From positions 3,924,265 through 3,988,264 of the forward strand of contig CAJINV010000007.1 in the NCBI GenBank assembly GCA_905178155.1: a DNA stretch of 64,000 nucleotides, read 5' to 3'. This document shows, piece after piece, positions 2,926-63,100 of the stretch (position 1 is its first letter; each line of letters opens with the position of its first letter). Origin of the DNA: Amoebophrya sp. A120. Lineage: Eukaryota > Protista > Dinoflagellata. The notes under the pieces were generated by a model. It worked only from the letters and a program-made list of their open reading frames with translations, was not told where the DNA came from and did not search any database. Both the position numbers and the translations under genes were made by a program.

Positions 2926-4941
2926 ATGCCGCGGGACTCCCCCCCATTTCCCGCGTTTCCGCGCGAGGTCGAGAGCGGGCTGCACTTGAATGCGGTGCAA
3001 GAGGTTCACGACGGGATTTGGATCACTAACGCGGTCGGGTTGGCGTCGCGGGACTCGATTCTGCGGGTGAAGCCCAACTTGATAATCACGGTGGGGCAGG
3101 AATTCCGGCAGACCGGCCTGCCGCCCAGCATCCGCGACTTTTTCGCAAAAGACCCGTTAACACTAGGCGCTTCCGTATGGAACTGTAGTCAGAATCGAAA
3201 TTGACACAGTTGAAATCCTTTGTGATGCAAAAAATCGATACCGCTGGGACCGTGGGACCCACAAAATGTAGTCGGCGCATGACAAATTTTCCCCATGCTG
3301 CCGGAAGCAAATCCGTCATGCTGTTTAGGGCAAAGGAGCTCCCCTCTGTCATGCTAGGCAGCAGCCCAACAATGGACCCCTAGCAGGATTATAATCTGCC
3401 TCCCTTGCGTCCTCTGCAATAGAGTCACTTTTTGCGTCGCTGTTATATGCATTTGCGTTCGCCTTGCTACAGTGCTCTAGTACTCAAACTTCCCTGCGGC
3501 ATTTTATTTTTCAATATATGCATTTACAGGGATTCTTTCGACCTTGCTGATTTCGATCCTGACACTTCCATATTCCGCCTCCTTGGACGAGCTCGTCCCG
3601 AAGGACATTTTGGAGAAAGACTACCTCGCCTTCGGCCGGTATCCTGAGTAAAACCGATAGAGTGCCCATAGTTGTAGTAGTCCCTGGTGGGATGTTGAAC
3701 TACTTTACTTTGCTACAACATGAGAAATCTACCAACTGTGCGAGTCGTGCATGGCACTAATAAAGTTGGTTGGTCTATCTCGTGGCGATTCCGATTTTCT
3801 TTTAACTTTATTACAGCCGCATGATCAGAGTCAGAGACGATTCAACACATGTTGCTTCATGTTTATCTAAGTTAGAACATGATAACTTCCACAGCACGAT
3901 GAGATAAAAAGAATTCCGCTCATGCGTGGAAGCTGTCTAAGAGAAAGAGACTTGCTCCTGCACACCCCAAATTCGCATGACAAAGCCCTCCTCGTGGGTA
4001 TGTGCTTTTTACTCAGGATAGCCGACCATCGACGAGTGAAAAACTGGGCGACCTCGTACACGGCATCGAGGCGAATCGTATTCAGCACGAGGGGCAGAGC
4101 ACACATATGGAAGTGTCAGATTCGGAGCAAAATTGTAAAATGCGAATATATCAATCTTCTTGAGACGAGAGTAAGAGCCAAACCCGCTCCTCCTGGAGCA
4201 GACTCACAACCACGATCAACCTCGCTTGCCTTCGCTGCAAGGACGACAGACGCTTTCTGCTTCATAGCGTGATGTCCCGCTGTTCGTCCTGCATTTTCAT
4301 TCTGGACTATTTGCACCATAATTTTGCAACTTTCCACCTGACACCTCCATAAAGCAGAACGGGTTGGTACTCGGCAGCATCGACGGAAACAGCTGTGCCT
4401 ACTACAACGCGGGCAAAATTTACGAGGAGGATGAAAATAAAATCTTTTTGGAGCAGTGCGACCTGGAGGAGAAGGACCCCAATGGTCCTCCGGAAGACTG
4501 TGCGGAGGTACTTACCTATTCGACCTCCTGGTTGTGATGTTAAGTTGTACATGAATTTGGTGTACTAGGTTCTTTTGTACTTACACCGTTGTAGGACACC
4601 AGCACACTGATAGAAGTCGTGAAGTATTCAATCCCTTCGCCGTCCGCAAAAAAAAAAAGGTGAAAGCGTTGGAGTGTCTCGACGAGACCGTGCGGATCAT
4701 GGAACAGCGCATGGGCGTATCAAATGTAAAAATGTCTGGGTCTGGAAATTTGTGATGCTAAAATGTGCATGATGAAAACACTTCTGAATGCAGTCCGGTA
4801 TGACAACTTCCGAAAACGCTTTCTCATAGGCAATCCGCATGAGAAACTGCGTTTTTGCATGACAATGATGATGAGGTCGGATCGACGAGGTGCGTCAGGG
4901 GGCGTCACTCACTCATTCATTCATTCAGGGGGTCCGTCTCA

Positions 4942-4972
<31 letters not shown>

Positions 4973-6804
4973 CAAAAGAGGCTGCGACTCTTGTTGGTTT
5001 ATGCAATACAGATTTTCTAGGTATGGAAAGCTAGCATTACAAGTTCCAACCTTCCAGACCCAGACATTTTTACAATCCATAGGGCGATTGCACCGGTTGC
5101 AGGCCGGAGGGAGCGAGCTGTCTCATCGTCTGCGCTTCGGGGTGCAACAAGTCCGTCATGGTTGCGTGTGCGTTCATCGTATCAAATGCAACGGATTCTA
5201 TGTATCGTGTCTTCAGGCACAGAGAACAAATATGTTTGAAATTCATCAAATCACATATACTAGGCACGACTTCGACTTGCAATGCAAGATTTGCATCACA
5301 GTCTATCAACTCCAACTGGTGTACTTAGTTCAGTTCGTTGACTGGCAGCAAACAAGGAAGCGTTCTTGTACCCCTCTACTAGGCGGAATGGAGGTACTTA
5401 CTCTGCAACGCAGAAGATTATGTGCCTGTCAGTTCTTGCACAACCTGGCCGCGTCGTGGTGGTGGTGCATAGATTAACTAATTCTTCTCGCCTCCGTGCA
5501 GGAGGCCTCACTAGATGCATGCCTTTTAGGCAGCCAATCATCATGCCAAGCAACATCATTTCTCCTGCCGCGAAACGAACTTTACTGAAATCACCTGACA
5601 GACACAGACAGATAGTTGCATTGGATAAATGAACCGCTTTCGTCATTTGCCGTTGGTCGAGGCCTTTGAAGCAATCTGGCAGTATAGTGAATCTAATTTT
5701 GATTTTCTTACTCTTTGTGCACATGCATGATTGTTTTTGTTGTACTCGTCCCCGCAATTTTATCTTTGGCAGCTTTATTTCGTCTTCGAGGTCAAATAAC
5801 TCGAACACGAAGTCAAACCACATTTATTTGAAGATAGTAAATCATTTTGGAACGTTTCTTTGTAACACGAAGAAGGAATGAAAATCAGTAAAATTTTTAT
5901 GCATGTGTATCCTATCATCCTCAGAATCCGTCCCGGCGTTTGGTTGACCCCCTACTTGATGCGGCTGTGCAGCATCTACGAAGCGTCCCTGTTTCGCAAT
6001 GTGGTGCGGCGCGGTAAGGGCCTGATGCAGAGTTTGGCGGGCGGTAGCAGAAACAACGAAGCACTGCTGCAACAGATGGCGCACCAATTCCAGGCTGACG
6101 TGCCTTCGGTCGATCTGCAGGAGTACACCGCCATCACGGAGCAACATCGCCACATCCTCGACCCAATTCGCGAACTGGAGAGATCTTTTTTCGTTTCCGT
6201 GTTTGAACGTTTTTCTCAGCCTCCTCCGGGGGAGTCGCGGGTGGTCGGGGTCGAGAACAAGCCCAAGCAGTCCAGTTCTTCTTCCTCCTCCTCGCAGTCG
6301 ACCTCGACTACGAGAGAGGAATCAAAAACCGAAGTGGCCAGGGCGGTCGTGGACCACGACAAAGGCAAAGCTACGGTACAACTTGGACAGCATAACAAAA
6401 TGTTGAAACTGGACGGCGCACATCAAAACGTGAACAAAGAGCCCGTAGTGCTTCTCTCTGACCATGGGATGTTGCCCAAAGGAGGTCAGGATTTCATCTG
6501 TGGGCCAAGAGACACTAGTATCTAATGCAAAAGTATCGCACTCGTACTATATCGTTATTGCAGTCGTGCATGTTGACAGATCTATGGCCTATAGGCAAAT
6601 CAGCGTATATGAGTCTCACTGTCACCATGATTGTGTTGCATTTTATACGTCGTACAACTTGGTGCCACGATACTTTAGCATTCGATAGCTAGCACGACGC
6701 CGGAATCGGTCGTTTCGACCTCTTACCCGACAAGCGGGATACTAGATACCGGCGTTGGAGCTGAAGAAACGTCACCTCCCTCGCAGGGCAACTACAGTCG
6801 CTAA
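2926..6804 (+). CDS. Dual-specificity phosphatase-fold protein, about 9 exons, atypical P-loop
   Basis: Spliced exons give EVHDGIWITN...LDETVRIMEQ...CLIVCASGCNKSVMVACAFIMNRFRHLPLVEAFEAIWQIRPGVWLTPYLMRLCSIYE, matching the DSP layout (HCxxGxxRS...AYLM...RP...QL..YE). Stop TAA at 6802-6804 after the last introner. Confidence 0.75.
3176..3572. mobile_element. Introner, family A (TATGGAAGTGTCAGGATCGAAATC-type TIR)
   Basis: TSD TTCCG (3171-75 / 3573-77), imperfect TIR. Removal gives LGAS-ASLDELVPKD. Confidence 0.85.
3640..4020. mobile_element. Introner (TATCCTGAGTAAAA TIR)
   Basis: Perfect 14-bp TIR, TSD GCCGG/GCCGA. Removal gives FGR-PSTSEKL. Confidence 0.85.
4106..4351. mobile_element. Introner, family A (degenerate)
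   Basis: TATGGAAGTGTCAG ... CTGACACCTCCATA ends. TSD not recognisable. Confidence 0.65.
4718..5081. mobile_element. Introner, family D (TATCAAATGTAAAAATGTCTGGGTCTGGAA TIR)
   Basis: TSD GGGCG (4713-17 / 5082-86). Removal gives RMG-DCTGCRPEG. Contains an (ATG)10 microsatellite at 4942-4971. Confidence 0.9.
5180..5627. mobile_element. Introner (TATCAAATGCAAC / GTTGCATTGGATA ends)
   Basis: 13-bp TIR with 1 mismatch, between AFI and MNRFRH of the DSP domain. TSD eroded. Confidence 0.6.
6519..6687. mobile_element. Introner, family H (TATxxxTGCAAAAGTATCGCACT TIR)
   Basis: TSD ACTAG/GCTAG. TIR related to elements at 13891 and 25537. Confidence 0.75.
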
Positions 6805-13441: not shown

Positions 13442-13627
13442 TACTCACGCGGGAGGACCGAGCTGTGTTGCTTTCGCACGCAAACTACTTGGCTCTTGCA
13501 TAGAAAGAAAGTTTTACAGGAAAAGCAAGTAAAAAGAAACTCACGTGGTTACCAACAGACCTGAGAGGAAAAAGCGTAAACATGATCTTCGTCAAAAAGA
13601 ATTGTCTTCACACCAAGTTTTAACATC

Positions 13628-16444
13628 ATGGCTGGTTGTCTTCCTCTCCTGTATTGTTGGCTTTTGGTCGCGCTTTTCTACGTCTTTTTCCTGGCATTTC
13701 TCGCCTACCAGGCCACTTTTTTTGATTCCTTTCATGACATCCTGGGTTCCTGTTCGGAAGCCCACGCGGCGAATCCGGTCGTCACCGCATCCGGAGGAGC
13801 TGGTTTTGACCTGGATAGGTTCTCCGGTGACTGGTACGAGGCGGCGCGGATCGCCAATCCGTTCGAGACCGAGCCAAATTGGCTGGACCGTATGCAATGC
13901 AAAAGCATCGTACTAGTATGAATTGCATATACAAATTTCCTCAGCGTGACAAATGCAGTTTGTAATGCTGTTTTACCTTAGGAAGAAGATTTGTCATGCA
14001 TGTTTGCAATTAGTACGAGTGCGATACTTTTGCACGTGATAGACCGGTATGATCTCCTATTTGTGACTGACAGCGGAAAGGACCACGACACGGAGTTGCA
14101 GCACGACAGCAGCAGCGCGAAGCGAGGGATCGATAGAGAAGGTGGATCATCTCTATTGGCGAACAGCATACAAGATTCGGATCATATCTCGTCGCGGTCC
14201 TCACGACAAAGTCAACGACAAAGAACCTCAACGTGGTCCGAGAAACTTGTAGTGCGGTTGTTTCAGCAACTATTCGACCACGTACCGGGGGGAGTCGTCG
14301 TGGATCGGGTTGCAGCACCAGCTCCAGTAGATCATGAAGAAGATCAGGGGCATCTTGAGCGCGGCTCTCCCGGCGAAAAGCAGGTTTCTAGTCGCGCCAA
14401 AGCACGACCAGCAGCAGCAGAGTCAGAGGCGACGGATGGTGCCGCGCGACGTCTTCATCCAGTAAAACTAAAAGAACTACAACACCTCCGGCCACAACAA
14501 GCAGTAGCAGATGAGCAGGGCCAGATGAGGGCTCTGTTGCAAGAACCTGTAGTAGTTCCTGTTGGTACTACGACAGACACTGACAAATCTTCACGAGCGC
14601 GGAAGGCACCACCACCAGGTGTATCTATTTATTCACTGGACGATGATGAATTCGAGTATCACGTCCACAATCCGACTGTGTTTCACTATTCCCGGTCTCT
14701 CCCGCCACCGGGTTCCTGGCTTGTGAACTGGCTAGACCCGTGCTTGCTACACTTGCCGTTCCAACTTAACATCCCGTTTTGCGACGACGACAGTGTGCTG
14801 CAACCTGCGGCGGAGCGCAGACCAGGAGTTTTGGAGAAGAGCACGGACAGAGAGGACGATGACGAACTTCTCGCACAAGCGATTGAGCAGGCAGATGAAG
14901 TCGATCATGCAGAGAAGAAGTCAAAGTCTACTTCAGCACTACCAGCAGGGGTTGTGGTCGATGTGCCGCGTGAAGGTGGTTACCTCCAAAGAGGACAACT
15001 GGATGACAACCCCGACGGCGAGAAGATACACCCGAGGACTACAGCTGCGACCAGGGTAGAGCCAGGTTCTGGCACAGCTGAAACTGCAGCAGCGGAGGAC
15101 GTAGTATCTTCTTCACGACCACCCGCTGGATCTTCAGGAAAAGGAACTGAGAAAACGGAAAACAAACACAATCATGATCCGCAAGAAACTAAAGAAACTG
15201 AAAGGACACCAAAATTACTATTTTCCTCCGGGGAGAAGGAGAACATCCACATTACAGATAAGATTAAGAAAGGCGTGGACCCCTACCTGCGTCTGCGCAT
15301 TCGTTTGCCCAATAACCTCGTCTGGACCGAGCACGACGCGATTCTCAAATGTGCCCCCGCAGACCCGATTCCCGACCCGGCGACGAACAGCTCCAAGCCG
15401 TCCGGTAAACTCTCCGGGGACTGCGAGGCGCGGTTTTCGTGGTTCCCCATTTTGTTCCGGCACACGGTGACCGCTACGGACTATGAGAGCTACGCAACCC
15501 TGTATAGCTGTTTCAGCTTTGGTGGGATCTTCAAGTACGAGTACGCGTGGGCACTGGTGCGGCATTTACCGCCGAGGATCTTTGTGAAAGACAATAAAGA
15601 AGTTGATTATATAGGTGTTACTGACAAGCATCGGCGGAAAATAAAAGCAGAGCAAACATACGCTGCGATGGTGGCCGAAAATGTTGCGAAAGTGCAGAGC
15701 ATCGTCGGGACCGCTCGACGGTTTATCTTTCCGCGCTTAGTGGAACATCAAGACAGTGGTGCTAGAAAGGAAGTGGAAGTTTCAGGGGACCAGAAAGTAG
15801 AGGAGCATCTGCTTCGAGAAGCAGAGCTGCTCGCGTTGACTCCCACACATCTTCAGCAGAAGGTGGATATTGGAGAAATGCAGCAAGAAACTAGAACTGA
15901 AACATCAAGAACTAATTCGTCGACAACCAGAGCTGGAAGATCAGACGAGCAGAAAGATCTGTTTCAAGATAGGGCAGTACCAACAGACAGTATCCAAGAA
16001 AGCGAGAACAAGGTGAACAAAATTGACAAAGGAGTCAGAGGACAAGAAGCGAAGGTTGAGGCATCTAGTACAGCGTTAGGACCGCAGCCGCGAGTAGAGG
16101 CTACCACAAAAATGCAAACTCCAAAATACTATGTCGAAGATGAAATACAAGAATGCATGCCTCTTACAGGACCGCCGGGAGCAGAAGTGCTGCAGCCGCC
16201 TTCGCTCCGGGTGACAGCTGACGTCGAAGCTGTCTCTCTGTACATCTTCACGGCTCCTTCCACCGGATTTTTCATACAAAATCCGGGCTATTGTTCTTTT
16301 CAAGTAGGAGTGGGTACTACTTTCTCGTTTCCGTTACATCCGGCTGCTAGCTTCTATAATCGGCGCATTAATCTACTCCCGAAATCGTGTACGGCTCCAG
16401 AGGTTGAGCGAGAGAGCACGGAAGATTATGAGGTAAATATATAA
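13628..16444 (+). CDS. Lipocalin (Blc/ApoD-like) with N-terminal hydrophobic segment and a very long internal insertion
   Basis: SCR1 FDLDRFSGDWYEAARIANPFE (about 13805-13870) and SCR2/3 VTATDYESYATLYSC...YEYAWALVR (about 15465-15565), joined across the introner at 13891. Confidence 0.8.
13891..14041. mobile_element. Introner, family H
   Basis: TSD GACCG (13886-90 / 14042-46). Removal gives WLDR-YDLLF. Confidence 0.85.
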
Positions 16445-16939: not shown

Positions 16940-19900
16940 ATGCAAGCCCCACCCATAATGATGCAGCCTCCGCCGATGATGCAACCGCCGGTCATGTCTC
17001 TGTCTCTCCCCGCAAGCATAACCTCTCCGAACGCGATGCCCCAACTGCCACCGGCCAGCACCCCTCCGCCGGTGAATCTGATGCAGATGCAGGCTCCGAA
17101 ACCGTTGCAGGTGCAAATCCAGACGCCAGCCTCTATGGTCTCCGGCGTAAACTCCCTGCTGAACGGGCCGCCTGGCGGAAACATTAGCGGGGCTGCGAGC
17201 GCGGTCGGTGGGGCGTCGTTTCTCAGCGGAGCGCCGCCCGTTCCCAGGAACCATTTCGCGGGAATGGATACGAGGCAAAAGAGGCCGAGCACGCCATCGT
17301 CCGCACTGAACCAGTTTTCCATGGCACCGCCACCGGGGAACAGTACTTCCGCGGGTATGAGCAGCGGTGGTCAGCCAGTGCCGGTAAAAACACGCTGGTA
17401 GTCTTCGATGTAATGCGCGCTGGTGCGCCGCACTTTTTGCTTTCAAATATCAAGACAATCTGCGTGGCAAGGTAGTTGGTCTTGGTGCATGTAGATTCTT
17501 CATCCATGCCAAACCCAAAAATCCCTGTTCACGTGCAATGAAATACACTTAAAAGCTGAAAGAGATCCGATGCGCACTTCGTTCTGCATCTGCACCAGAC
17601 ATCATGAAATCGAAAATAAAGTTGCATGAAACACAAACCAATTACAACAGATAGCAACCGCCGCTGCAACGCAGCAACCCCGGAAGGTTTTGAAGAATCT
17701 AGCCTACCATTTGCGGGACCAAGCGCGGATCATTCAGTTGAACCACCCAGAGTCGCTGGACCAATACAAATCACTCGGGATTCTCTTTGACCTCGTGGAT
17801 CTGTGCGACCAGGCCGCTGCGGTGTCAGACTCGCGTTTCGCAAAAGACGAATTGCTATGCTTTGCACATATTTCGTCCTTATCGCCCTGGGTCTGGTAGG
17901 ATAAAGAACTCGTTATAGTACTGAATTGCGCAACGAGAGTCAGACTCCTGGAATGCTTGACACGTTTTTTCTTGAGCGTTTTCTCAATAAGCGAATGCGT
18001 AAGCGAGAGTATGTATGTGATGCGCATTTTTTGCATGACAAAAATGAACAAAGTGGCGGCCTTGATGTCCTCGGTCATGCATATAGAAATTCAATTTTAT
18101 ATACAGGACATCGTGCGGCACGTGGCTGAATGTGAATTCTTGTTATTCAGGATACGCAATACAAGTTGCACTCCTCTAGACCCAGATTCACGAAGATGAT
18201 GCTTTCATCGGATAACTACAGACGCTTTTCTGGCGCGCAGTCGACCTGTTGAAGCAATGTCCCGTATATGAATTGATTCATTGAAAAGCTGCATTTAACA
18301 AAACATCACCAGGACAACTTGTTCTTCCTTGAAAAAGAAAAAGCGCACTGCTAAGAATGAAGGAACTCAAAGTTTTTGTTGCATCAGATCACCTTTGTTG
18401 CATCAGGTCGCCGGCTAATTGCCTACTTACCAATCGTGCAGAGAGACGTTTAGGTTATCCTTATCCCCACAGGAAAATACAATCCTAATCCAGGTTGACG
18501 GGCTTTCCCCCTTCCGATCCTACGGTCTACGGCTGGAACACACCATCCAGGCCATGTGGGCGGCGTATGCGCAATATGACAGTGCACAACTCGTCCCCCT
18601 CGCCCTCATTTGAAGGGCATAAGGAGCAACACAAGTCCTGGCATGAATGCAGCTTTTGCATGAAAAATTCGCGACCGATTCTAGTGCTGTTTAGGGTTCC
18701 GAAATCTTTCACGCAAGTAGTGGCGCCAAAGGGGAAAGAATGGATTTCTTTGGTATTTTGCATGACAAATGAGAGGGTGGGGGAGTTGTGCACTGTCATA
18801 CGCAAAGGCCGCCGGTCAAGGATGTTCCGGCTGCGTTCGAAGTGCCCGAGATCCGTCTGTTGCCAGTGGGGTCGCAGGTATAGCGGACGAGCAGTGGCTT
18901 GAATTGGATACACACGTTTTTGACGCATAGAAGTAGCCACGTTGTGAACGAAAAAAGGATAATGAAATTTCCATGCGCATGCGTATAATAGGTGAAACAA
19001 AAGAAACACCACGATCACGATCATCACAAATATTTCCAAGGTCGAGTACTACTCGAACACCTACCGAAGATGGATGGAAGCAACTGTGCTACTATGCACG
19101 GAGAATAAAGACGGCTTCATAAGCAGCTTCACTGTTTTTTTTCCGCAGTGCTGGTGGAACCAGCATCATGTCTGCTGTAGTTCGTTGTATGACAGAGATT
19201 AAATAAAGCTGTGTTAGGCATTGCTTCTTCTGACGACCGGGCGTAATTCGAGCATGTTGTGCGTGTGTGTGTGTGTGTCGCTGTCGCCGCTAGAAGATGA
19301 AGACTCGACGAGGCTTCGCAAAAAAATGTCACTAAGGTCATCATGATCTGAAGTCTGCTTCTGACTGCAATCTTGAGGCATCGTTTCTTCTCTCCGATAT
19401 CTTGGCCATCTCCCAGAAGGTGATTATCAGCTCGACATTCAAGCGCATGCGAGGAAGGAGAATGTGCGGGTACTTGTGCAGATTTTTGCTATAAATCGAA
19501 CAACGAGCAGGCTACACCTATCGAATTACTTTGCATTTTTCCACCGATTTGAATCAGTGAAATTTGTTTTCTTCTTCTCGTGCCTGCGTAACAAGAACGG
19601 AGGATGCAAACAAGAAATAACATCGAGGAACGGCTGAAATAAAGCTCCTCCTGCAACGAACACATTATACTTTTCAATTTCACGACGTTTATATATACGC
19701 CTAAACCTCCACCAGGCTGTGATCACCCGTTCTCGCGAGCACGCACAGAGTTCCTCCGACCTGCCCCAGCCTCCACGAACGCAGCAACAAGGTTTGTCGA
19801 ACGACCTTAATGGCGCTGCAGCACTAGTAGCGGCTGCGGGCGGGGTATGAGAGTGCACAAATCCCCCTCCCCCTCATTTTTGTTGCATGAGCAGCAATAA

Positions 19901-20842
19901 AAACCCCAGCGCACATTCATTGAGCCTGCGCATGATAACTTCATGCGCGTCATCGTGTAGTACTGTTTAGGCTTCCTCCAGAATCTGTCATGCAAACGGT
20001 GCCACGAGGCAGCCCAGCGCTTGGAATTGGATATGTAATTTTGCATCAGAAATGAGGCAGATGAGGGGGAGTTGTGCACTGTCACATGGGGAGATCGCTT
20101 CGACGCCGACCGGAGAGCAAGGGGCGACGTACCCCCCGGGGACCATTGTGGAGTATTGGTCCACGATATTCACAAAAAAAAGACCCATCTTCCCCATCCA
20201 AAGCATCACATGCAAAACGCGTTTCAAATCCTTTGTCTGTCATGCAAAAAATGGATGGGGATGGATCATTTTTGGTGGATACACGAGTCTCAACCAATGG
20301 ATTCTCGCCGAGGTTTTGAAGTACAACCTGCACAACAAGACGTACCAGCTGGACTGCAAAAACAACGCGCCGAGGGATCGGATCAGACGTATGCCACCAA
20401 TTTCATCTAGAAACTCATATTATATACGGTTTGCAGACCGCCACGTAACAGTTTCTGATCCTGAGCTTGTAAAAATATTATTTTCACTGCCAGGTCCTTG
20501 TAGTATAATCGAAATCAGCGATTGGCAGCAGTTCACCAGAAATCGTTCTTCTCAACATCAGTAGACCACTGTGTGTTTCACAGTACTTACAACATACAAC
20601 GAACAACCCAGCCCATGCCCGCTCTCCCCGTGACGTCCGCCCGCTCACAGAGCACACCCGGCCGGTCTTACAGAAGTGCAACGACCACGACGGCGCGTCT
20701 TCGCAGGTCAGTAGCGCAGCCGGTGGAGGACCTCTCGCCTCGTCCAAGGAGAATCACTATAGCAACAAGAGCAGATCGCAGTCCAGGGGGGCGAGCAAGG
20801 ACCTGGCGGGAAGCCGGCAGTTCGCGGGATCCCCGCCCATGA
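16940..20842 (+). CDS. Multi-exon protein: Pro/Met-rich N-terminus plus two Tudor/Agenet/SH3-like repeats
   Basis: Two homologous units after splicing: PVGSQVEYYSNTYRRWMEATV...DYQLDIQAHARKENVR and PPGTIVEYWSTSLNQWILAEV...TYQLDCKNNAPRDRIR. Gene ends approximate. Confidence 0.6.
18575..18800. mobile_element. Introner, family B (TATGACAGTGCACAACTC TIR)
   Basis: 18-bp perfect TIR plus CCCTCATTTG/CAAATGAGAGGG subterminal IR. TSD CGCAA. Removal gives AAYAQ-RPPVKD. Confidence 0.92.
19846..20086. mobile_element. Introner, family B
   Basis: TSD CGGGG/TGGGG. Removal gives AAGG-EIAST. Confidence 0.88.
20167..20281. mobile_element. Introner, family C (TATCCACAAAAAA..CCCATC TIR, about 115 bp)
   Basis: TSD CACGA. 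Removal gives EYWST-SLNQW. Confidence 0.88.
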
Positions 20843-44859: not shown

Positions 44860-47800
44860 ATGGGTGATCCTCTTCCAGGATTTTATGTTTGCACTTCCTT
44901 TATGATGTATAAAGTGACACTGCAACAAGAGGAACAGAACTACTTATTGTGGGTAGAATTTATATGTAGTCATGGCATAGTAGGTAGAGTAGTACTGGCA
45001 CGACCATATTTTTAGAATGACAAGAAAAAGATAATATGATGAGAAGTAATATCTAATGCTACATACGAACAGGTATGCAAGTAGCGAAATGCAGGGCTGG
45101 CGACCCGCCATGGAAGACGCCGCCTGCGCTGAGGACTTCTCCGGCAGCGGAATTTCCTGCCTGCAAGATTGGGCTTTTTTCGGGGTCTTCGACGGGCATG
45201 GAGGTGTCTACTTACGATATACATATAGGCCTTAAAAAATGCATCTCTCCGACAATGAATTCGCTTCAAAATTTGATTTTGAGCTCAAATCTGTAAAAGA
45301 AAATCTTAGATAAAAAAAAATCACGGACGTCGGAACAAGAAAAATTCGAATGAAAGTATCATCTACTTATTTATCAGGTGCCGCCGTCTCAAGAAGGATA
45401 AGCACGGAGTTGCATGGCCACTTTTGCGACATAGTAAAGAGGAAATATAGCAACGCAAGCAGCAGCATAGAGCCCGAGCAGGTGAAATACGCCCTGGGAG
45501 AAGCGTATTTACGAGTTTTCTTTTTGGTTTTCTGCTCGACCTCTCCCCGTCATTTCATCGTATTTTTGGATAGCAGTGGGTCATGATGATGTAGTTCGAT
45601 TTATAGAATACGTCGAGCATCAATTTATATATGTATTCGAGGTTGGTTAAGTTTAAGTGGCTATCTTTCAGATAAAAAATTTGTGGATGATTTATGACAT
45701 TTACCACCTGAAAACAGATTCGCGATGATGGACTTGGCACTTCGAAGAGAGAGTGTCAACGGCGAATTTTATGGCATCAGAAACGAATATGAGTGGGGGT
45801 GTTGCTATCTCGCGTTTGCTTATCACACAGAAAAAAACTAGCATATCCATGTCATTTTTGTTGTGCAAACAAAATCAATACACAAGGAAAATCTGTGCTG
45901 CAATGCTCACTCCATCATGATCTACTTCATTATTATCATCATTCATGGTGGTTTGCAGAACCGAGCTTGCACACGGCCAGTGAGTTATGCGAGTCGCAGA
46001 CTAAAACAACAGCAGAAAAAAAAAAACGCCCCTTTTTATAATTCCGTCCTGCTTGCATACCTGTGATTTCGTAGGCTCCACCGGCATTGTCGTGGTGTTG
46101 AGCGGGCGCGATCTCGTCTGTGCCAATGTGGGAGATAGTCGAGCACTCCTGGCCCGGGACAACAAGTGTCTCTCCTTGTCTGAAGATCACAAGCCCGAGA
46201 TGCCACAAGTAAGATTGGTGTATGTACTTATTTTGCTGTCGGTTCATTGGAGGGCGCCATGCTACTTCACTAGAATGATGAAGGTATGAACGGGATAAGG
46301 ATAACTCGGACGTGCACCTTGCAACCTAGGGGTTTCCTGTGTGTGTTGGACGACGCTCCAGAAAGTTTGAGTTGAGTATAACGCTGGCACGATCTTCATA
46401 GTCACGACGTCGCATCGCGACGATTCCGTTCAACATACAGCAACTAGTACTTAAGTACTTCGAAATATTACCAGGAGCGCAAACGAATCGAGAAAGCAGG
46501 CGGCAGCGTGGCACAAATAGGACCCTGCTACCGTGTGGACGGCTGGGGCTTGAACCTCTCTCGTGCCTTTGGCGATTTCCACTACAAGGGCAGGCCAGAC
46601 TTGTTATGAGAGAACACAACTTGTTCCCTTCCTCATTTGTCATGCAAAAACCTAAATTCACTATCACTCATCTTCCTCCGTTCTTACCAATTTTTGCATA
46701 GCATGTTCCGCACCAGCAGACCAAAGAAACTAACAGCATCTTAGTCTACTTGCCTGAATTTGTTACGCAAAACAACAAGCTCGGCTCTTGCCGACGCTTG
46801 TGTTACAGCTGTTCGTGCATGATTGCGCAGGGGTGGAGGGGGAGTTGTGCATTTTCATACTCGGAGCCGTGGGAGCAGAAGGTCTCTGCGGAGCCGGAAA
46901 TCCGGATTTTGCCCCTCCATGCTAGTACCGACAACTACCTCGTGCTCGGATGTGTATCCGATCGACATACAAATGCATTTCAAGAAAACCTCAGCTGTTT
47001 TTCCTTCTGTCTGAAAGATGCACCATGAGCAGCTGCTTTGCTAGTACTTTGATATTTTTCATAAAAACTTTTGTTGATGCCGCCAATATAATAAATTGCA
47101 TTGAATCTACTACGTAATTTTTCTTCTGCATATTGACCTTGTCCAATGTTGGGTACGCAGCAAGTCAGATTTTTTTTGTTGACACGACTGGGCTGCGTGT
47201 TGAAATGAAAAGTTTGCTTGCATACCCTGACGGAGTGTTTGAGCTGCTGAAGAACCAGGATGTCATAGATTTCGTACAGAAAGTGATCCTTTTTCCTTTT
47301 TTTTGTATGTCAAAAAATGCGGGCATAGTACCCGGCTAATGTGCAACTTATTTTTCGATTTCATTGATGTGAGTAGATTGCAACATTATGATTATCGTAT
47401 TGTATTTCGGTGCAGGTACATTGATGGCATGTTACTATTTTGGTTCATACAACCAGGTCTGCGAGACAACGCGCGACGGCTCGTCTAGCATCTCACAAGT
47501 GGTTGAATCGCTGCTAGACCAGTGCATTTCGCCGAATTTGCTGGTCACGCAAGGAATATCAACTGCAATTATGTCTGGGTCTCGAAGAATGCAATGGTTT
47601 TCATTTGTGTTTTGCATGGCCCATGATGCCTGTAATGCATGGCCTAGCGTCACAGATTAGATTTCACCCAAGAAGGCTTCCTGATGCCTATTCCGCATGG
47701 CAAATGCCCTCCCCGCGTATTACAAACTTGGCTCCTCTTGTTGGTCATGCGATGCAAATATTTTTAGAATCCAAACACAGCAGCACAAGGTGCAACCTTC

Positions 47801-51008: not shown

Positions 51009-54000
51009 ATGAGCGGGACGCCAGCTGGTGCTGCATCAGCTTGGGACTTCAACCTGCACTACACACCCAACACGGTCGCCGCGTTCGCGAAAACAGCCTC
51101 CGTATGAAACAGAAGCTCTCAAACGTTGCATTCTTTGATGCTGTTCTCTCATTTACATGATTTGCCATCCTTGCAGAATTGCCAGCAGCGTCGTCGCGTT
51201 CACACGATCAAGCTGCTTCGCGTCGCAAGTTTAATGGCCTGAAGATTTTTTTTATTTTTCAAATTTGTCTATAAGGCAAAACGTGCAAAAATAGTACTTA
51301 GCATCAAACTCCCTCCTTTCATTTCCGCGATTCTTGCATCAATCGGCGGGATTATAGCATCAATGTAGTGACGTCGTTGAGATGTCGAACAACTCCATAG
51401 GCCGAGCGTTTTGGGTATGCCGGGATCGCGATGAACTTCGAAGTGGAAGACCTGGCCGAAATGGAGGAACTTTTGTGCATTTTGAAAGAGAAAAGCCTCG
51501 AAGAAGAGACCAGAGCAACCGCGCCCGCGCCCGCTGGTAGTACGACCAGTAGACCAATGGGAAAAACTACATCGATGCTCTTGTCATCTTCAACATTATC
51601 CTCTTGTAGTACTACGTTGAAAAAGAACAACTACAACATCCACGCGACCACTGGTGGAGCAGGAGCAAAAGCTACCGGGAAGGCGAAGTCGCAGTTTCGC
51701 GCCCGTTTTGTCCAGTTTGTGGAGGAGTGCGATTTGGAGAGCTCGCGCTTCTTGGAGGAACAAAGGAGCCGCGTTTTGATGAAGAGCAGGCACGAAGGTC
51801 AGGATGGTGAACGGCAAAAAGTTGCTCGTCCTCGTGAGATGAAACAACTGCAGGCGACGACGAGTACAGCCAGCTACAACAGATTCGTCGACAAAAAGAG
51901 TGGTAGTAACGATGGATCAAAGATGAAAATAAAAACGCCCCCTGCAGCTCCGCCTGCCGATGTGCTGAAACGCGTCACGCTAGTCCACGATGGGGCGGCA
52001 GTGAATTTCCACCGGAAAACGGACTTGATTCGGGAAATCGCAACCTTGCTGCGGCGCCGAGCGTCCAGTCAGAGAAACGGGAAGAACATAGAGACAGCCA
52101 CTATATCATCCGCGTTTCGTGGTGGCCAGGAACAGGAACAAAGTACACCCCTGGCGGAGCACTTCCCTTCTGATGGTCAGCAACCGGATTCGAATGGACA
52201 AACGAAAGCCGAGTCCTCGACCTCTTTAATTCGGAAGCAAGGTCAGCTGCACCACTCGTCGCGATTGCTACCAGCGACCAAGTATGCTTCGAAAATAAAG
52301 TATAGTACTCGTATAAATATAATTAAATGCGTGTCTTGCAGCAAGACAAATCTCTTTTTTTCCCTTAATGTGCATGACAAATTCAATTTTTCTTCGTTGA
52401 AAAAAATTTTTCTTCATGCAATGCTGTGTACTAGTACCAGTACGCAATTACTTTTTCTATGCATACCAAGCGAGCCAAGAAACAAGAGCTGGAGGTCGTG
52501 CAGGCAGCAAATAGAAGTACTGAAAATAATAAAAGCCCACTGCACGACGACCACCGGGTGGAAAATGGGCGGTCCTTCACCACTAAGCCGTGGCTGCTGC
52601 ACAAAAATTATGCCAACGCGCAGCGCCACCCCTGGTGTGATTTCTTGGTGGCCATCCGTCCCGTATGAAGGTACACAACAACTCCCCCTTCCCCTCATTT
52701 CTCATGCAGATAAAACGCAGCTCCAGCACAGCCACTGCCTCATATCTTCGCTATTACCTGGTATGACAAATTTGGGCAGAACCCAATCCTTACTACAGTC
52801 TGCCCGCATGTTTGTCATGCAAAAGCTACATTTCGATTATTTCTGACCTTGTTTCTATTGCTGTTCTTGCTTTCAAATGAGGGGAAGAGGCAGCTTTGCA
52901 CACTCATATTCCGGGAGCGACCAGGCACTGACGGAGATCGCGAACCTCGGAGGCGGTGGAACGACAAATACGCTAGAAAAAAACTGTGTAAGTGTAGATG
53001 ACACCTGTAAAAATGAACAAGCACACGATACAGCAACGGTATACAGTTGTCACGCTAGCCAGCCGTTATCCTGAAATTACCATCCTGTGTTCATGATATA
53101 CATACTTTTTCAAGTACGAAAATGAACTTGGTAATAAGAGGCTATAATGTCTGTTGTCCTGGAGAAGAAATAATGTGTCATGTTATCACTCCAAGACGCC
53201 TACACTGACACAGTTTTTTTACTGGATAACAAGCGCAATCGGTTCATTATCCTCTTTACCCGGCGGAAGCACGTCCGCAAACGCGCCGCCGTTGTTTGAT
53301 CTGCTAGCCCTTCCCCTGGAGCAGCCGGCAACGAGCGCAACCGGGATCCGCATCTTGCGGCCTCAGGTAACCGCTTTACTCGACCGAAATCCAGCGCTCC
53401 TGTTTGAGGTATCGGAGAAAAAAAGATTGTAGCTGCAACTTTATTTTTGCGAGTGCGAGAAGAAGATGAAGAGCACCACATCGTGCAAACAAAAAAAACT
53501 GGCCATGCGCAGCTAGTACTTTTTGTGAAAACACAAGCGCGGCGAGCCTATTATGCATGTCCAGCATGATTATGCCAAGTGTACTACTGAAACTGTCTTG
53601 CCCCCTCGCCTGCAAGATGAACGCAAATTTACACGAGCAATCTCCTCTTTCTCCTGCATATGAGGTTCCTTTCGCGCACTGCCTGCGCGCCGAGCAGGCC
53701 GATCAGTTTCGACATTTTTTTCAAAATTTGCAGAAGCTGGCCCGGCTCACGCACGGCAAGCACTGCCTTCTCACCTCCGGAGCCCGAGCTCCGGCCGTAT
53801 CCACTGCAAATTAATATATCTGGGTCTGGAAGTAGAATGCAGATGCTATGCGTCGTGCTGTTTCTGTATCTACCACACGAGGGTCTTGTCTTGAATGCAC
53901 GCAGAGCATCAGAGGCAGGCTTTGCGGACGCTTTTCCATGATACCCTCTCCGAGAGACCCCTCTTTTGCATGTGCAGACGAGACCATGAGCATGTAACAC

Positions 54001-54622: not shown

Positions 54623-55382
54623 AAGTTGCACGCTGTACAACTAGTGCTTAGCTTTTACGATCTGTTCAAACCTGCGTGGTAATACCTACCAGCGACCAGG
54701 AGCGCGGACGTATGTCATGCGCTTGCGCATGCATGCATGAGGTTTTTGTTTCACGCGGTCATTGGCCTTTTTTTGTTCCTACTGAGCAGTGATTCTTGTG
54801 CATGCTGCACACACCCGAAAGAACACGATTGATGTCCGACACGACGCCCCCAATAGCAATAAAGGGGAAAATGAAACGCAAGGCCGCGACCACTCGCAGA
54901 ATGAAACAAGAACTACAAAGAGTGACCCTTGCGACTGTTTTTAGACTCATGATGCTTCGCTCACCTGTTTACCCCAAAAAACCTCGACGCATGTTCAACT
55001 TTTGTCGGAGCAGATGCAGATTGAGCAGATGCAGACACAGACTATTCTTGTTGCATTATGAAGATTATTGTCTGATCAGCTGGTTCTTGTCCTTGTCCTT
55101 GTCGTGTTTAGGTCGCTTCTTGTGATGTTTCGTTCCACCATACCAGGCAGGCAGCTCCTATGAGTTGCTGTCGATTCTTGTCTTTTTCATCTGCTAGTCG
55201 GAGAAAAAGTACTTAGCACTTTTCTCCAGATGACATCTGCATCTGGAGGAAAGTGTTACTCTTTCTTGTTCGTCCGTTTTCATTGGTAGACTTTGTTCAT
55301 ATTCGTTCGCTTATCTTTACTTTGCTACCGGTAGTTTTTCCGAACTGAGAAAGAGAAACCAATGGGAAAAATCGAGTAATCT

Positions 55383-57180: not shown

Positions 57181-60100
57181 ATGTCGCGCCGCCTTGTTCT
57201 GGAAGCTCTGCCGTTCTTTATTTTCATGGGTGCGCTCATCTTCAACCTCATCTTCGAACAAATTTTGACTTTTGTTCCGATGAAGGATCATAGACGACCT
57301 CCTTTAGAAGAGACACATCAGTCACGACCCACTTCTGCCGTTATTTTTGTTACCGCGTCTATTGCTATTACGGGGGAATTCGTTTCGCCCTTCTACCTCA
57401 CGACGGCGTCCTCAGAGGGCGTCAGCCTACCTTCAGGCAACTTCGCTCATGACCACCCCCTGCAAAGGCCGTACCCGGACCTATGGGTGTGTCCGGATCG
57501 AAATCCACAAAGTTGAAATAGTTTGTCATGCAAACATAAAATGGATACCAGTACTATTTGGAGGCAGGCTCAATTTCAAAGAGGCGCCTGGCAAATTTTC
57601 CGACCACCCGAAATCTAATTTGTCATGCTGTTTGGGCAGAGAAGCTAGCTTTTGCCACGCTGGTTTAGCAGCTCTATCTCAAACTTAAACCCTATTAAAC
57701 AGGCCCACAATCAGCCTCGCTGGCCATCCCTGAAAGACAGGCACATCATGCTTTGTATTTTATGTATGACAAATTATTTCAACTTTGTGGATTTCGGTCC
57801 TGACACTCCCATAGGATCACAGCCCGGATTTGTCTGACCTGACCAAAGCCGAGGACTCCGGCGTCTGCCACAAGAAGGAGGTCGATAGCACCAGCGAGGA
57901 ATGGTGGGAAGTGTCGTTCAAGGATAGCGCGGCGCGGAACATCACAGGTTTTGTCCTCTTCAAGTACCCGCCCGCTACCCCTTCGTCTCCTGAGGGAGCA
58001 CTAATTTACTTGGATGGCGCGACCGACGCCGCCGCTGCTACTGTGCCAGCTCTGCAGAACGACGGCGGGGGAACCTGGGTGGCGATCGGGCAAACCGCAC
58101 ACAGCATCCGCATCACGCGGTCTGCGGGGTCCTTCATCTTCTGTGGGTTCTGGTTGTTCGTGGCTTCGGGTGGATCCTCCTGGCCGCCTCTGGGTCAGGA
58201 ACCCAACCTGCCGGTGGGGACCTCCGGCCGCTATGTGTACCCTGCGTTCCTGACGACCTCTTCCGCAGCGGATTATAGCGCCATGTATTCTCACGAACAT
58301 GCGATCCGCCGGAGCCCCTCCCTGATCTACCCATTTTCTGTGAACGCAGGTCACAAGGTGTGCTCCCAAACATTCTCCCCCAATGATTGGTGGCAAGTGG
58401 CTTTCAGGGACGGGGTTCCGCACAGTCTGTCGGGTTTGGTTATCTTCAGCAAGTCCACAGGTCCTCAGAACACCTACCTAGATATCGGCGGAGTAGAGGT
58501 GTACGTTGACCGAGCGCAGTGGGGCGTGTTGGAATCATTTCCCAGTTTTCGGCTCCCGTTGGCGATCGACCCCCTTGGCACCTGGGTGCCCATCCACCGC
58601 CGCGTGACCACGGTGCGCCTGCATAGAAAGGAGCTGTGGTTGACCTTGTGCGGCCTCTGGCTGTTCGAGGCGGAGAGCCCGTTGGAGGCAGAGTCGGTGT
58701 ATGCAAGCGCTGCGCCCCTGGATCACCCGAACATCCCCGCGGGGACTGCGGGCCGGTTCATTCCTCCCGGGGAGCTCTTGGTCACCGCGTCCAGCGAATG
58801 GGGCACCGATGTACTCCGAAGGGACTTCCCCCTCCGCCGGGCAATGCCCAACGACTGGTATTTCTTCGGGACACTGGGGGGGTCGTTCGACTCTGGCCAG
58901 TGTTTTGCGTCCTTATTGGATACCGGCGCGGACGAGTGGTGGGAGGTAAGTTTCACCGACAACGCCCCCCGCCAGCTTTCTGGTTTTGTGCTGTTCGCTC
59001 GTGACATTGGGATCACATCTGACGCCTCCAGGATCCACAATGCCGATGTTCACCTAAACGGGGACAATTCCCGGGTTGCCTTCACGCTGCCGAGTTCGGT
59101 CTCTGTGACCGGAAGCTGGGTCGCGCTTCCGGTTGGGCTCCCGATTTCCAGCATCCGCATTAAGAAATCTGACGGCTTGGTTTTCTGCGGCTTTTGGATG
59201 TTCGAGAACGCGCCGCCTTCCGCAGCGGACTGGTTCTACAATGGCACCACCCATGCACCGGCCCGGCACTACTTGTCCACCAAAGTTCCCGCCGGGACCG
59301 ACGAGGACCTGTTTTTCATAGACGGGCATACCAAGCTTGGTCGGTACGGTCACTGCGCCGACCAGACATTTTATTGACGGAAAATAAAAGTGGTCGAGTG
59401 GTCACAGACCTCTTGCAACAGCAGAACCAGAAACACACTGCCCTGGTGCATGACAGAGAGAAAATAGACTTGCAAAAGTGTGGACGTGGAGGTTAATAAG
59501 AATAATAGGGGACGAAATGTTAAACATGGATGAAACGAGTCGAGGCTCGCAAGCAATCCCGGGTTGATATCAAAGGCAGCTGTCTGTGTCTGTCTTGCCT
59601 GCTCACTACGGCAAGGAGGTGTAAAAACTGTTCTTACGTAACCAAGTGCAGTTACCACGCTTTTTTTTCCCTATAGTGCGGAGCACCTCTTCCTCCCGCT
59701 ATGCAATACAAATAATTTCCCGTACATCTACGAGATGCATCACAAATTTCTCCAATTTGGACTGTAACACTTGCGATGCCATAAAAAAACTAGGATCGGA
59801 GCCAGTGTTTGTCATGCTGAGACCGCATTTGTTTTACTCTTATGTACGTGTGCGGGAAATTTTAGTTTACTGTGGATACCCCCTGAACGAGGACACCACC
59901 GCCGAGGGATGCGTGGCTGCCAGTAGCCGGGTGGGCGGCGGCCTGGTCGCTGTGTACAAAGATATGGGTCCAGGAGAGTGTTGCTGTATCGGCACGACGC
60001 GAACGGCCTTTTTCAAAGCCAGTGGAAGCGCTAGTTCGAGGGACGTGGATTACGGCTTTGTGGTGGAGGGAACGTCCGCTGGCGAGTGGGATTTGACTTT

Positions 60101-63100
60101 TTACCCGAGTGGCACGTGGATTAGCGCTCCCGCTGGGGTGGTGAGCGCTGGCCTCTTTGGTCCCTGTGCTGGTCGCGTTCTTTCCGACCTGACAGACCAG
60201 GGAGTGAATGAATTGTACCTCGACTCGGACGAAGCCTTCGATGGCAGCGTGGACGCCTGCGCGCTGCGGGCTTTTCAGGTGCACGCCAAGTATTTCACCA
60301 TTGGAAACGAGAACAATGCGGCCTCGGTTTGCTGCGCGGTGTACCTGACAGACGCGACGCACAACGGTACGCTACCACTAACAATCTCCGGGCACCTACG
60401 ACTTTTTCAACTGCACGGCCGGTCGAACTCCACGGCCGCGGATGAGGTTCTACGTGCGCACACCGCCGGGCTGTATCCGCTTGCCGGCCTCGCGCATGTC
60501 AAAGCGACCCAGTATTCGACGTTCGTGGACCCCCTCACTGGGGTGGCGTACCACGCGGATCTCCCGCTGCGGCGCCCCTACGACGACCTTGCGCCGGTCG
60601 ACTACTGGTCCGCGAAACAATTTTGCGCGGTCGGTGCGGCCACGACGGCGGCGGGGAGCGAAGCTGGCTGGTGGGAACTGGAGTTCGTGGACCAAGTGGC
60701 TCGACCGGTTGCGGGGTTCGTCTGGTTTCGCCATTTTACGAACTGGGACACGGGGTATCTATCAAATGCAAATAAAATATAAGCAGTATGCTTGGGTCTG
60801 GAAGAAGACTGCAAGGTTCGTCATGCAGGCTTCGCGCATGTTGGCCCAGATGAAGAACGTGGGGAATTGTACGAGCTGCAGCATCCAAAGTTTTTGAGAT
60901 GGCTCTCGCTCTGCAAACGCTAACGCAATACCTATCCTGAATGAGAAACGCCATCTTGTTCGGGTGCTGGCCAAGAATTGGCGGCTTTTGCTGCTCACGC
61001 AATACAGATTTTTGCGTCCTGATTCGGTTGGTAAGTAGCGCAATCTGTTTTCTATTTCAATACAGATTTTTGCATGACAAACTCCGATACTTGCAGGCCC
61101 AGACAAGTTTGCAATGCATAGCATCTGGACAGTGACGACCCGATGCTGGGTGCCCAGGTTTACGTGGACGGTTTTCGCGTCTTGCACATTGACACCGTGA
61201 ACAGCACCGCGAAGCGCGGGCAGTGGGTCCCCTTTCCCAACGCCCCCCTTCTAGCGAAAAAGTTGCGCATTGTAGCCCGGCGGGACGCCGCAAACCCCTT
61301 GCGGCTCTGCGGATTTCATTTGTATCTCGCGGGGGACGTGTCTGCGGCCGCAAGGGCAGGAGCCGACGTGGCACCGGGCGGGGGGCCCTTTGAAGACGCC
61401 GCGCTTTCTACCCGGTCCTTGATTGAGGGGGGTGTGAACCGCCACTACTGGTTTACCGTTGCCGATTTCACGGTGCAAATGAGGAACCCCTCCGGCTGGG
61501 CTCAGTTCGGCATATACGGTCACTGTAGGAGCGGTTTCTTAGGCAACCTGTATACAGAATCGAACGCGGAGGATGGTGTCACGTTCGAAACCTGCGCGGC
61601 CGCAGCTGCTGCGGTCGATGGGCGTGGAATGATGATGATGAAAACCGACTTATCTTCCTGTGTAAAAACACCCCCACACCATAGTTGTAATGCAAATCTT
61701 CTGCATGCTGAAAATATTCTGCGGAGCCCCATAAGAGGCATTTTCTAGTCGCGTTTCGGAATTTGTCATGGTCCAATGAGCATGACGCGCGAGATCTCTG
61801 ATGCTGCTGAACTAGCTAAACAGGACTACACTATGAGGCCAAACTTGTCATGCGCGACAGCCCATCCGTTCGGTCCTCAGTAGGTAGCCCCACAATTATG
61901 GGGCTCGCCAATATATTTAGACGGTGGGTGACCCAATCGGCAGAGAGCACTGCCACCGATCCACCGATGACGATGATGAGTCCTTCCATCTTGACTATGG
62001 GGTCGGGACGTTTTTCCTCAGGATACGACTCCGCAGCTTTGGCGTCTGCCGGCCTTCCCGCTGATACGACTACTCCGTGTTGCACTGTCTACACCGGTGC
62101 CGCGTTCCGCGGAGTTGCTTTTGGTAGTGGTAGTAGTTGGAAAGTTCACTATAGCCATTTGATTCACATGGACCCTGCCTCGACGGGCGCCTGGGACGTG
62201 ACGCCGATCCCCTACGGCGGATGGATGGATGAAACCGACAATACCCACGACCACTACGGCCCCTGTGCTGTGCTTGGCGCCACGGGCACGCTTTTCACCG
62301 CCACCGGCGGCACGTACGACAACACCGTGGACCCCTGCGCTAAGCTGGCTGCGGAGAAAGGAAAGACGGGCTTCCTCATTGGGAACCACGACGACCCCTC
62401 TTCTCCGTGCTGTACACTGTATGCGGAGACCCAAGGGGACATGCGGTGGGGAGAAGAGGCGATGCCCACTGGAGGGAGTGGGGTCGCTTTTTTCTACCGC
62501 GTGTACAAATTGAACGGCCCGTCGCTGCTTACGGGCGCGAACCGCGTGCCTGCGGGGCTGGTGCCGCTGGCGGAGGCCGACGTCCGCCGGTTGATGGCCA
62601 CGCAGAGCTCGACCTTCACGGACCCTTTTTCCGGCAATATCTGCACCGCGACGAACCCATTGCGCCGCCCGTACAATGACGTTGTGCCGGTAGACTTATT
62701 TTCGTCGAAGCAGTACTGTGCGGTAACTGGGGCAGCTGCGTCCACAAATACGTTAGGGAAAACTGTCCCCACTACCGCGGTTTTCCCCAAAGAGAAAATT
62801 TTTTTTTCGATCCAAGGGCGACCAGAATGAGCCCTGCATAGCCGACCTACTCCGCGAACAGCCGAGACGCGAAGCCAGGTCCTCCCGGTGGGCTGCTTTA
62901 TGGAATGAAAGAAATTAATTAGCTAGTGGCGCGCATTAACTATATTTGCAGATCTTGCATCAATATTTATTTCATTTGAGAAAGGCCTTCACGCTCCGGC
63001 TTCCGGGCCCAGCTTGTCGACCATCCCCTCGGGCAGACCAGCATGGCGACGGTCTCCGGGTCCGATCTCCATGAACCTCGTGTAGAACTGTTACCGCGGA

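Follow-up and report, generated by a model that had tools for sequence, protein, structure and literature searches.

A reiterated internal site in the TAT...ATA introners of Amoebophrya sp. A120 and its probable recognition by one mobilising protein

A 64,000-nucleotide stretch of the genome of the dinoflagellate Amoebophrya sp. A120 (assembly GCA_905178155.1, contig CAJINV010000007.1, positions 3,924,265 to 3,988,264; hereafter the window) carries numerous introners, mobile elements that double as spliced introns, of the A120 type with TAT...ATA ends and a 5-bp target-site duplication (TSD). One octamer, TGTCATGC or GCATGACA, recurs inside them. The octamer is probably the core of a site, reiterated within elements, at which one shared mobilising protein binds double-stranded DNA. 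This predicted factor is probably a transposase, and the site appears to be kept while the elements jump and to decay afterwards; the part of the protein predicted to bind it is the DNA-binding domain of the transposase. A first-pass annotation of the window had proposed either a common transposase-binding site or an intron-definition signal. The former proposal fits the arrays found in 13/13 multi-copy families, the near-absence of the octamer elsewhere, the phasing of inward-facing sites, and the conservation followed by decay; binding itself is predicted, and no binding protein was found in the material searched. The question addressed is how tens of thousands of non-canonical Amoebophrya introns spread.

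The site, its carriers and its conservation

The octamer was present 44 times in the window (TGTCATGC, 25 copies; GCATGACA, 19 copies), and its 10-mer extensions TTTGTCATGC and GCATGACAAA were present 10 and 13 times, respectively, in agreement with the earlier count of dozens of copies in both orientations. Among the 15 positions that the first-pass annotation had quoted, 13 were exact and two were one base off (true positions 3277 and 61072). A k-mer analysis placed the octamer at the top of the over-represented 8-mers of the window, with 44 copies against 2.8 expected under an order-2 Markov model and 6.05 under an order-4 model. The variants GCATCACA (18 copies) and GCATTACA (8 copies) were also enriched, and among the single-base neighbours of the octamer, change was tolerated at the fourth position only.

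In 12 family alignments, 46 homologous sites gave the profile A-A-T-(T/C)-T-G-T-[C.52, G.26, A.19, T.02]-A-T-G-C with a tail rich in A. Conservation was 0.86 to 0.96 at the seven fixed positions, and the variable position accepted C, G, or A and excluded T. The octamer is the core of a pseudo-palindrome of about 13 bp, AWY-TGT[C/G/A]ATGC-AAA. In its common form, TTTGTCATGCAAA, one base is added to the palindrome TTTGCATGCAAA, and this near-symmetry may explain why sites at one and the same position can face either way. The ApiAP2-type element TGCATGCA, considered as a possible identity, was ruled out with one copy in the window. Another short word, (G/A)CTGTTT with purines after it, lies 15 to 30 nt from the octamer or is fused to it in the consensuses of families 1, 3, 4, 5, 6, and 8; it is far less element specific than the octamer (TGCTGTTT, 61 copies inside family masks versus 46 outside).

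In the window, a scan for TAT...ATA flanked by a 5-bp repeat gave 28 candidates. A 20-nt motif-free word from the terminal inverted repeat (TIR) of family 0 drew a further 145 loci from the contigs of one other assembly (590,901 bp merged), so that family 0 is over-sampled by design and the other families came from the flanks of its loci. Loci and window together contained 419 elements, compared with 14 in a shifted-TSD control; seven redundant elements were removed, and 377 of the remaining 412 belonged to 13 multi-copy families. At least one TGT[ACG]ATGC was found in 365 of these 377 elements and in 13/13 families, with family means of 1.2 to 3.7 per element. Across families the ends had the form TAT[C/G]-N4-G-N-AAAA, in which TAT was demanded by detection and the remainder was not: TAT is followed by seven looser bases and at least three A, and positions 11 to 15 were A in 0.69 to 0.91 of 838 ends. 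Of 254 elements detected by TIR alone, 200 had an exact TSD of 5 bp and none had one of 6 bp.

Inside introner-family masks lay 41 of the 44 window octamers (3.45/kb, versus 0.06/kb outside), and in related loci of at least 3 kb the corresponding counts were 616 and 42 (5.78 versus 0.10/kb), the masks having been built, with mild circularity, from profiles that contain the motif. The density outside elements, 0.06 to 0.10/kb compared with about 0.03/kb by chance, is partly explained by eroded elements. The three-variant motif had no copy in 6,648 bp of RNA-supported exon or in 9,949 bp of long open reading frames (ORFs), as had been remarked for the long exons, and it was absent from 9/9 RNA-supported canonical introns of the non-TAT[C/G] type among the matches listed. 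An origin of the motif as a sink of CpG decay was ruled out by its near-chance frequency outside the elements. The family-0 TIR pattern had no match in viral contigs, and the tandem paralogues in one related locus (L005) had no motif-bearing intron in common.

Motif columns outranked inner non-motif columns in conservation in 12/12 family alignments (family 0 held to 80 copies). Private substitutions in families 0 to 8 affected 381 of 10,948 motif positions (3.5%) and 2,657 of 36,678 surrounding positions (7.2%), in a comparison biased toward conserved columns by the definition of sites on the consensus; at the variable position the value was 8.1%, like background. In strongly diverged copies the motif eroded more slowly than the TIR columns (0.126 versus 0.228, one bin), which is also expected if these copies are divergent subfamilies; binning by TSD state or TIR divergence leaves selection before and after insertion inseparable. 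The earlier statement that the motif persists when TIRs erode therefore holds for diverged copies and fails for the oldest introns, since 9 of 21 RNA-supported TAT-type introns among the matches listed had no copy.

Decay after insertion was assessed at the sole orthologous locus in the comparison, L034, which corresponds to window positions 30634 to 35181 at about 95% identity. Of eight sites present in either strain, four were intact in both and four were changed, versus 33% of background 8-mers, and with eight sites the 95% interval for the changed share is 16 to 84%; a ninth site was deleted. The terminal TAT[C/G] and [C/G]ATA showed 0/64 changes, versus 3.5% in the rest, a difference that is suggestive and not significant alone. 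The same alignment contained 37 indels, of which 18 were exactly 3 nt and 4 more were 6 nt; nearly all were intronic or 3' of the coding region, so the excess of 3-nt indels is not explained by reading frame.

Spacing of the sites and the case for protein recognition

With elements longer than 500 bp excluded from the position counts, inward-facing sites started 33 to 34, 41 to 45, 54 to 56, 64 to 65, and 75 to 77 bp from the element end, and none started before 27. Direct neighbours in the same orientation had a spacing peak at 31 to 33 bp, which is three helical turns, and the family-weighted periodogram reached its maximum at 10.5 bp. Phase tests gave R=0.56 and p=0.003 with hand-picked family modes (n=18; p=0.03 over any period from 7 to 15) and R=0.63 and p=0.0003 with automatically derived modes (n=18), p-values that are optimistic given the kinship of the families and the non-independence of TIR-mirror pairs. 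Five outward-facing sites at most 70 bp from the end (centres 37, 40, 46, 49, and 67) lie near the inward phase. Among the 38 copies in bounded window elements, 14 were 27 to 56 nt from an end and the rest formed internal arrays, so the placement first described, 30 to 50 nt inside the ends, suits those 14 copies and not the internal 24. Recognition of double-stranded DNA by a protein would be expected to leave such a pattern, in which the letters are fixed except at one free position, both orientations are used, and the spacing is by whole turns.

Opposed copies stand 15 to 17 nt apart in several families and at TIR mirror positions, an arrangement that would also suit forward and reverse copies pairing as hairpins in RNA or single-stranded DNA and so compacting the intron or a transposition intermediate. 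The variable base was indeed complementary in 6/7 and 8/8 divergent pairs of families 1 and 2, respectively. In family 0, however, it was complementary in 27/69 TIR-mirror pairs and in 14/32 of the other pair set, about the chance level of 0.39, which indicates that sequence and not pairing is kept there. The consensuses of families 4 and 7 hold all their exact copies in one orientation, and pairing alone would not demand the same seven letters in every family. Hairpin pairing is therefore highly improbable as an explanation of the motif.

Under the protein-binding interpretation, the best supported of those considered, copies of the protein would bind the phased sites along one helical face and would assist in bringing the two ends into contact, so that they can be cut at TAT. 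Multiplication would continue only in elements that retain the array, and the site would survive while the rest drifts, recombines, and swaps ends, giving rise to what are counted as "families." After insertion, the termini would suffice for precise splicing by the host, and the array would decay.

Several observations weigh against this interpretation, beside the optimism of the phasing p-values, the consensus-based definition of sites, and the breadth of the ortholog interval given above. The inward phase was not reproduced when outward-facing sites were tested as an independent set (n=10, V=0.075, p=0.30), and the 24 of 38 bounded window copies outside the 27- to 56-nt zone do not keep to the ends. 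The slower erosion of the motif might also reflect selection acting after insertion. The motif is missing from three larger TAY...RTA elements with a 5-bp TSD (and from one other inverted-repeat element). No transposase Pfam family was found in 29 window ORFs, and no transposase family was found in 261 of the 412 ORFs of at least 170 aa from the related loci, with about 0.65 Mb covered in all; section 16 of Farhat et al. (PMC7789003) reports no transposase in the A120 genome. Two 1-kb elements with family ends were considered as carriers of a transposase gene and set aside, as their contents appear to be nested insertions.

The missing transposase, both here and in that section of Farhat et al. 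(PMC7789003), would be accounted for if the site were read not by a transposase but by a host DNA-binding or chromatin protein co-opted by the elements, which might bend the DNA and let them avoid silencing or reach open chromatin. All signs of double-stranded-DNA recognition also fit such a protein, and many sites lie mid-element. If a host protein read the site, however, ordinary non-coding DNA should contain it too, but the density of the octamer outside elements is near chance, and the phase of the sites is set relative to the cut end. We consider a co-opted host protein unlikely.

Splicing, kinship of the families, and known systems

Removal from RNA was followed in contigs of runs X1 to X4, which were taken as RNA by guess, a guess backed by the exact skipping of introns. 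Among the matches listed, to which all intron counts refer, 30 introns could be used, namely, 14 of 15 joints in a first set, one from its piece table, and 15 of a second set. The dropped joint (78 nt at 18670-18749) came from one run, had a 24-nt side, and lay within a repeat. TAT...ATA inserts were skipped exactly, and with an intact TSD the skipped length equalled the element plus 5 (236 = 231 + 5; 270 = 265 + 5). In ten TAT-type introns with a joint ambiguity of at most 2 nt, the intron opened one base 5' of TAT and closed four bases past ATA or its eroded remnant. This register is seen, for example, at 30263-30517, 32644-32993, 45769-46063, 46954-47228, and 48386-48809, and it holds whatever the end dinucleotides; the element termini persist longer than the rest of the element. 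The introns were mostly removed at non-GT-AG sites. Of the 21 TAT-type introns skipped, 12 had the motif and 9 did not (those starting at 31011, 31326, 32644, 44146, 44394, 45769, 46954, 48386, and 52964), and 8 of these 9 lacked GT-AG ends.

These motif-free introns bear on whether the motif serves in RNA as a signal by which the non-canonical intron is defined, as a branch-point-like or RBFOX-like element or a substitute for U1 small nuclear RNA, perhaps needed only in new insertions. Such a signal would agree with the absence of the motif from exons and from the nine canonical introns, with its slower erosion than the TIRs in diverged copies, and with the passages of PMC7789003 in which U1 is not detected in Amoebophrya. 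Families 2 (13:6), 4 (10:6), and 7 (8:1) lean to UGU-N-AUGC on the RNA. However, family 3 leans the opposite way (7:12), the overall counts were 312 for UGU-N-AUGC and 270 for GCAU-N-ACA, and both orientations occurred in 11/12 families, the twelfth having one oriented copy. Strand was called for 36 sequences by a long-ORF rule that agreed with Pfam-bearing ORFs in 6/6 contigs checked; two other classifiers (5-mer log-odds and a periodic Markov model) failed checks and were discarded. The distance of the motif from the right end ranged from 31 to >280 nt, with no fixed distance to the 3' end. The RBFOX element is UGCAUG, a strand-specific hexamer, and the G and A variants at the variable position abolish GCAUG on that strand, yet they are retained. 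The intron at 31011-31220 is skipped in RNA contigs though the window lacks the site there, which the related strain has, and orthologous sites decay while the terminal TAT[C/G] and [C/G]ATA stay unchanged in the small sample described. With both orientations used, no fixed 3' distance, 8 skipped non-GT-AG introns free of the motif, and no constraint between strains evident in a small sample, the branch-point, intron-definition, or RBFOX-type role first entertained was not upheld. A splicing role for the motif is unlikely, and the RNA-signal explanation as a whole is given quite low probability.

The introner families, first described as otherwise unrelated, share termini, TSD length, and internal homology and are not unrelated. 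With 30 bp per end and the motifs masked, 20/66 consensus pairs aligned at z of at least 3 and 10/12 families were linked, although leftover degenerate sites may inflate this similarity; examples of such links are those between families 5 and 10 (z=12), 3 and 6 (7.9), 0 and 2 (7.4), and 4 and 5 (7.3). Families 3 and 6 have a common internal core beneath different TIRs, which suggests mosaic evolution. Such kinship, together with decay after insertion, is what a functionless motif would show if it descended from a single ancestral element and had spread through copying and internal duplication. That explanation is already disfavoured, and we regard it as very unlikely: several exact copies per element are kept though the surroundings have diverged to the alignment limit between families, the private substitution rate is half that of the surroundings, and the 10.5-bp ladder is present although the commonest inter-strain indel is 3 nt (18/37). 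Common ancestry with neutral decay had been named at the outset as what would undo a functional reading. Shared ancestry and post-insertion decay were both observed, but ancestry alone leaves the better conservation in 12/12 alignments unexplained; it accounts for the origin of the motif and not for its retention.

The elements match A120 introners in every sequence feature tested, namely, termini, direct repeats, repetition, and mostly non-GT-AG removal. Passages of the A120 papers describe inverted repeats with a TAT start, seven looser bases, and an A run, direct repeats of 3 to 5 nt, and non-canonical splice sites (PMC7789003; PMC12130899). Several of the family lengths found here (about 109, 149, 209, 262, 279, 308, and 323) match those given in PMC12130899 for A120 "TIR DNA / Unknown" families (106, 149, 209, 256-261, 278, 305, and 319). 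In those passages the introners are treated as many separate families, 1,954 in number (PMC7789003; PMC12130899); most are unassignable to a known family in section 16 of the genome paper, and general transposase mobilisation is argued against by Farhat et al. (PMC7789003). The passages describe termini and no internal motif, whereas here one internal site was found in 13/13 multi-copy families together with a uniform 5-bp TSD. The motif strings had no match in the main and supplementary text of Farhat et al. (PMC7789003), whose inverted-repeat logos (Fig. 3 and S25) could show the motif, and no description of it was found in titles or passages of the introner and Amoebophrya literature, including PMC12130899, PMC11282704, and PMC9860276. 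The internal code shared by this known introner class is real and apparently unreported.

The octamer site is multi-copy, conserved among mobile copies, and rare elsewhere, as subterminal repeats are. Subterminal repeat arrays are present in CACTA elements and Tn7. Repeated subterminal transposase sites are also described, in the passages of PMC11707139, for the eukaryotic DNA transposons piggyBac/piggyBat, Tol2, Ac, and Tag1. Like the arrays of such cut-and-paste transposons, those found here consist of a short site in both orientations, lie inside the TIRs, form an imperfect palindrome, and are asymmetric between ends. Unlike them, they fill tiny elements of 110 to 320 bp that double as spliced introns, their binding is predicted, the TIRs vary from family to family beyond position ~15 with a constant internal site, and the end-to-site distance varies by whole helical turns.

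IS3EU/GingerRoot elements have TA..TA termini, TAYGG..CCRTA in fungal members, and a TSD that is usually 6 bp according to the passages of PMC10045372 and PMC12730594. The elements here likewise have TA..TA termini (TAT...ATA and TAC...GTA), and families 6 and 8 end in TAYGG..CCRTA; unlike IS3EU/GingerRoot, their TSD was 5 bp in the proportion given above and never 6 bp. The assignment was not adopted, as the TSD is mismatched and no transposase was found by which to place the elements. Passages of Gozashti et al. 2025 (PMC12130899) describe one TIR family of A120 with an integrase-like ORF.

One internal site across families, a fixed TSD length, and helical spacing would make many families one system. 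We tentatively raise the possibility, which we hold to be doubtful, that the approximately 2,000 introner families of A120 are one transposon system, in which a single putative IS3EU-related, integrase-like transposase with a 5-bp TSD reads a universal internal site whole helical turns from the cut end, leaving the TIRs free to diversify, and the host splices by measuring from the TAT/ATA termini. Apart from this possibility, two codes can be told apart in one element of 110 to 320 bp, the internal array appearing to matter for jumping and the termini appearing to be enough for splicing. With the motif as a defined DNA bait, the mobilising protein could be isolated, and the motif is also a signature by which autonomous copies could be recognised.

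Elements and other features of the window

The window elements that carry the octamer are given in Table 1 together with two unassigned octamers outside family masks and one motif-free intron.

Table 1. Introners and octamers of the window. Family numbers are those of this analysis; strand is "." unless given.
Feature	Position	Strand	TSD	RNA support	Octamers and remarks
Introner, family 6	3176..3572	.	TTCCG		3277, 3347
Introner, family 4	3640..4020	.			3975, inward, 39 from right end
Introner, family-0 ends	4718..5081	.	GGGCG		4857 plus two variant copies
Introner, family 1	13891..14041	.	GACCG		13992
Eroded family-0 introner	17856..18214	.		Intron 17855-18218	18033 plus one variant
Introner, family 5	18575..18800	.	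CGCAA		18760, inward, 34 from right end
Introner, family 5	19846..20086	.			19986
Introner, family 7	20167..20281	.	CACGA		20238
Eroded family-4 match	21149..21432	.			21234
Introner, family 6	25049..25380	.			25092, 25200, 25237, 25279
Introner, family 1	25537..25703	.			25654
Introner, family 5	25793..26019	.	TGAGG		25936
Introner, family 8	26298..26574	.			26400
Introner, family 5	29830..30060	.		Yes, 236 nt skipped = element + 5	29966, 30017
Eroded TAT-type intron 30654-30957	30655..30953	.		Yes	30783, intact in related strain
Non-canonical family-1 intron	31011..31220	+		Yes	No motif; related strain has intact TGTAATGC opposite 31157
Eroded family-4 intron 32089-32298	32090..32294	.		Yes	Single octamer 32179, mutated in related strain
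Introner, family 0	32348..32612	.	CATCA	Yes	32388 and 32564 (inward, 41 and 42 from ends), 32512 (mutated in related strain)
Family-5 introner with internal duplication	33713..34100	.		Yes	33931, 34063; one of the two deleted in related strain
Eroded family-1 intron	34171..34355	.		Yes	34251, disrupted in related strain
Eroded family-6 match	36863..37215	.			37001
Eroded family-2 match	37408..37594	.			37515
Introner, family 4	37744..38107	.			37921
Partial family-5 match	38177..38330	.			38288
Family-6 introner	39077..40209	.	TCGGG		39200 and 39232 (32 apart), 40155; interrupted by motif-free TAC...GTA element 39341-40149
Family-5 introner	46605..46859	.		Intron 46604-46863	46638, inward, 34 from left end
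Family-1 introner	52283..52465	.	CCAAG		52372
Family-5 introner	52664..52908	.		Yes	52813
Octamer outside family masks	54713..54720	+
Family-6 introner, long TIR with the motif as its inner end	57482..57813	.			57524 (43 from left end), 57621
Octamer outside family masks	59448..59455	-
Family-1 introner	59700..59878	.			59810
Family-0 introner	60760..61120	.			61072, inward, 42 from right end
Family-4 introner	61651..62025	.	CGACT		61846

The larger motif-free elements (710 to 1046 bp) lie at 35360-36405, 39341-40149, and 62749-63458, the second being the one nested in a family-6 introner; they have TAT...ATA or TAC...GTA ends and a 5-bp TSD and possibly represent a second, related system. The other inverted-repeat element, at 55380-56541, has a different long inverted repeat and contains tandem copies of ~117 bp as well as several hairpins. 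The raw RNA runs X9 and X10 gave almost no coverage of the stretch, apart from 32347-32434, where >100 reads of run X9 matched a family-0 end at 90 to 95% identity and continued on either side into a single foreign flank that was consistent among them; these reads come from an unspliced copy at another, well-covered locus. The GC-rich region 22500-24600, which RNA-run contigs matched only with many differences and whose four tested ORFs contained no Pfam family, is probably a copy of a dispersed repeat. Insertions with long flanking duplications (~18 bp) were observed inside introns in L034 opposite window position 33506 and in another related locus (L068, 11014-11985), one of them ending in an A run; they represent an insertion mechanism distinct from that of the introners.

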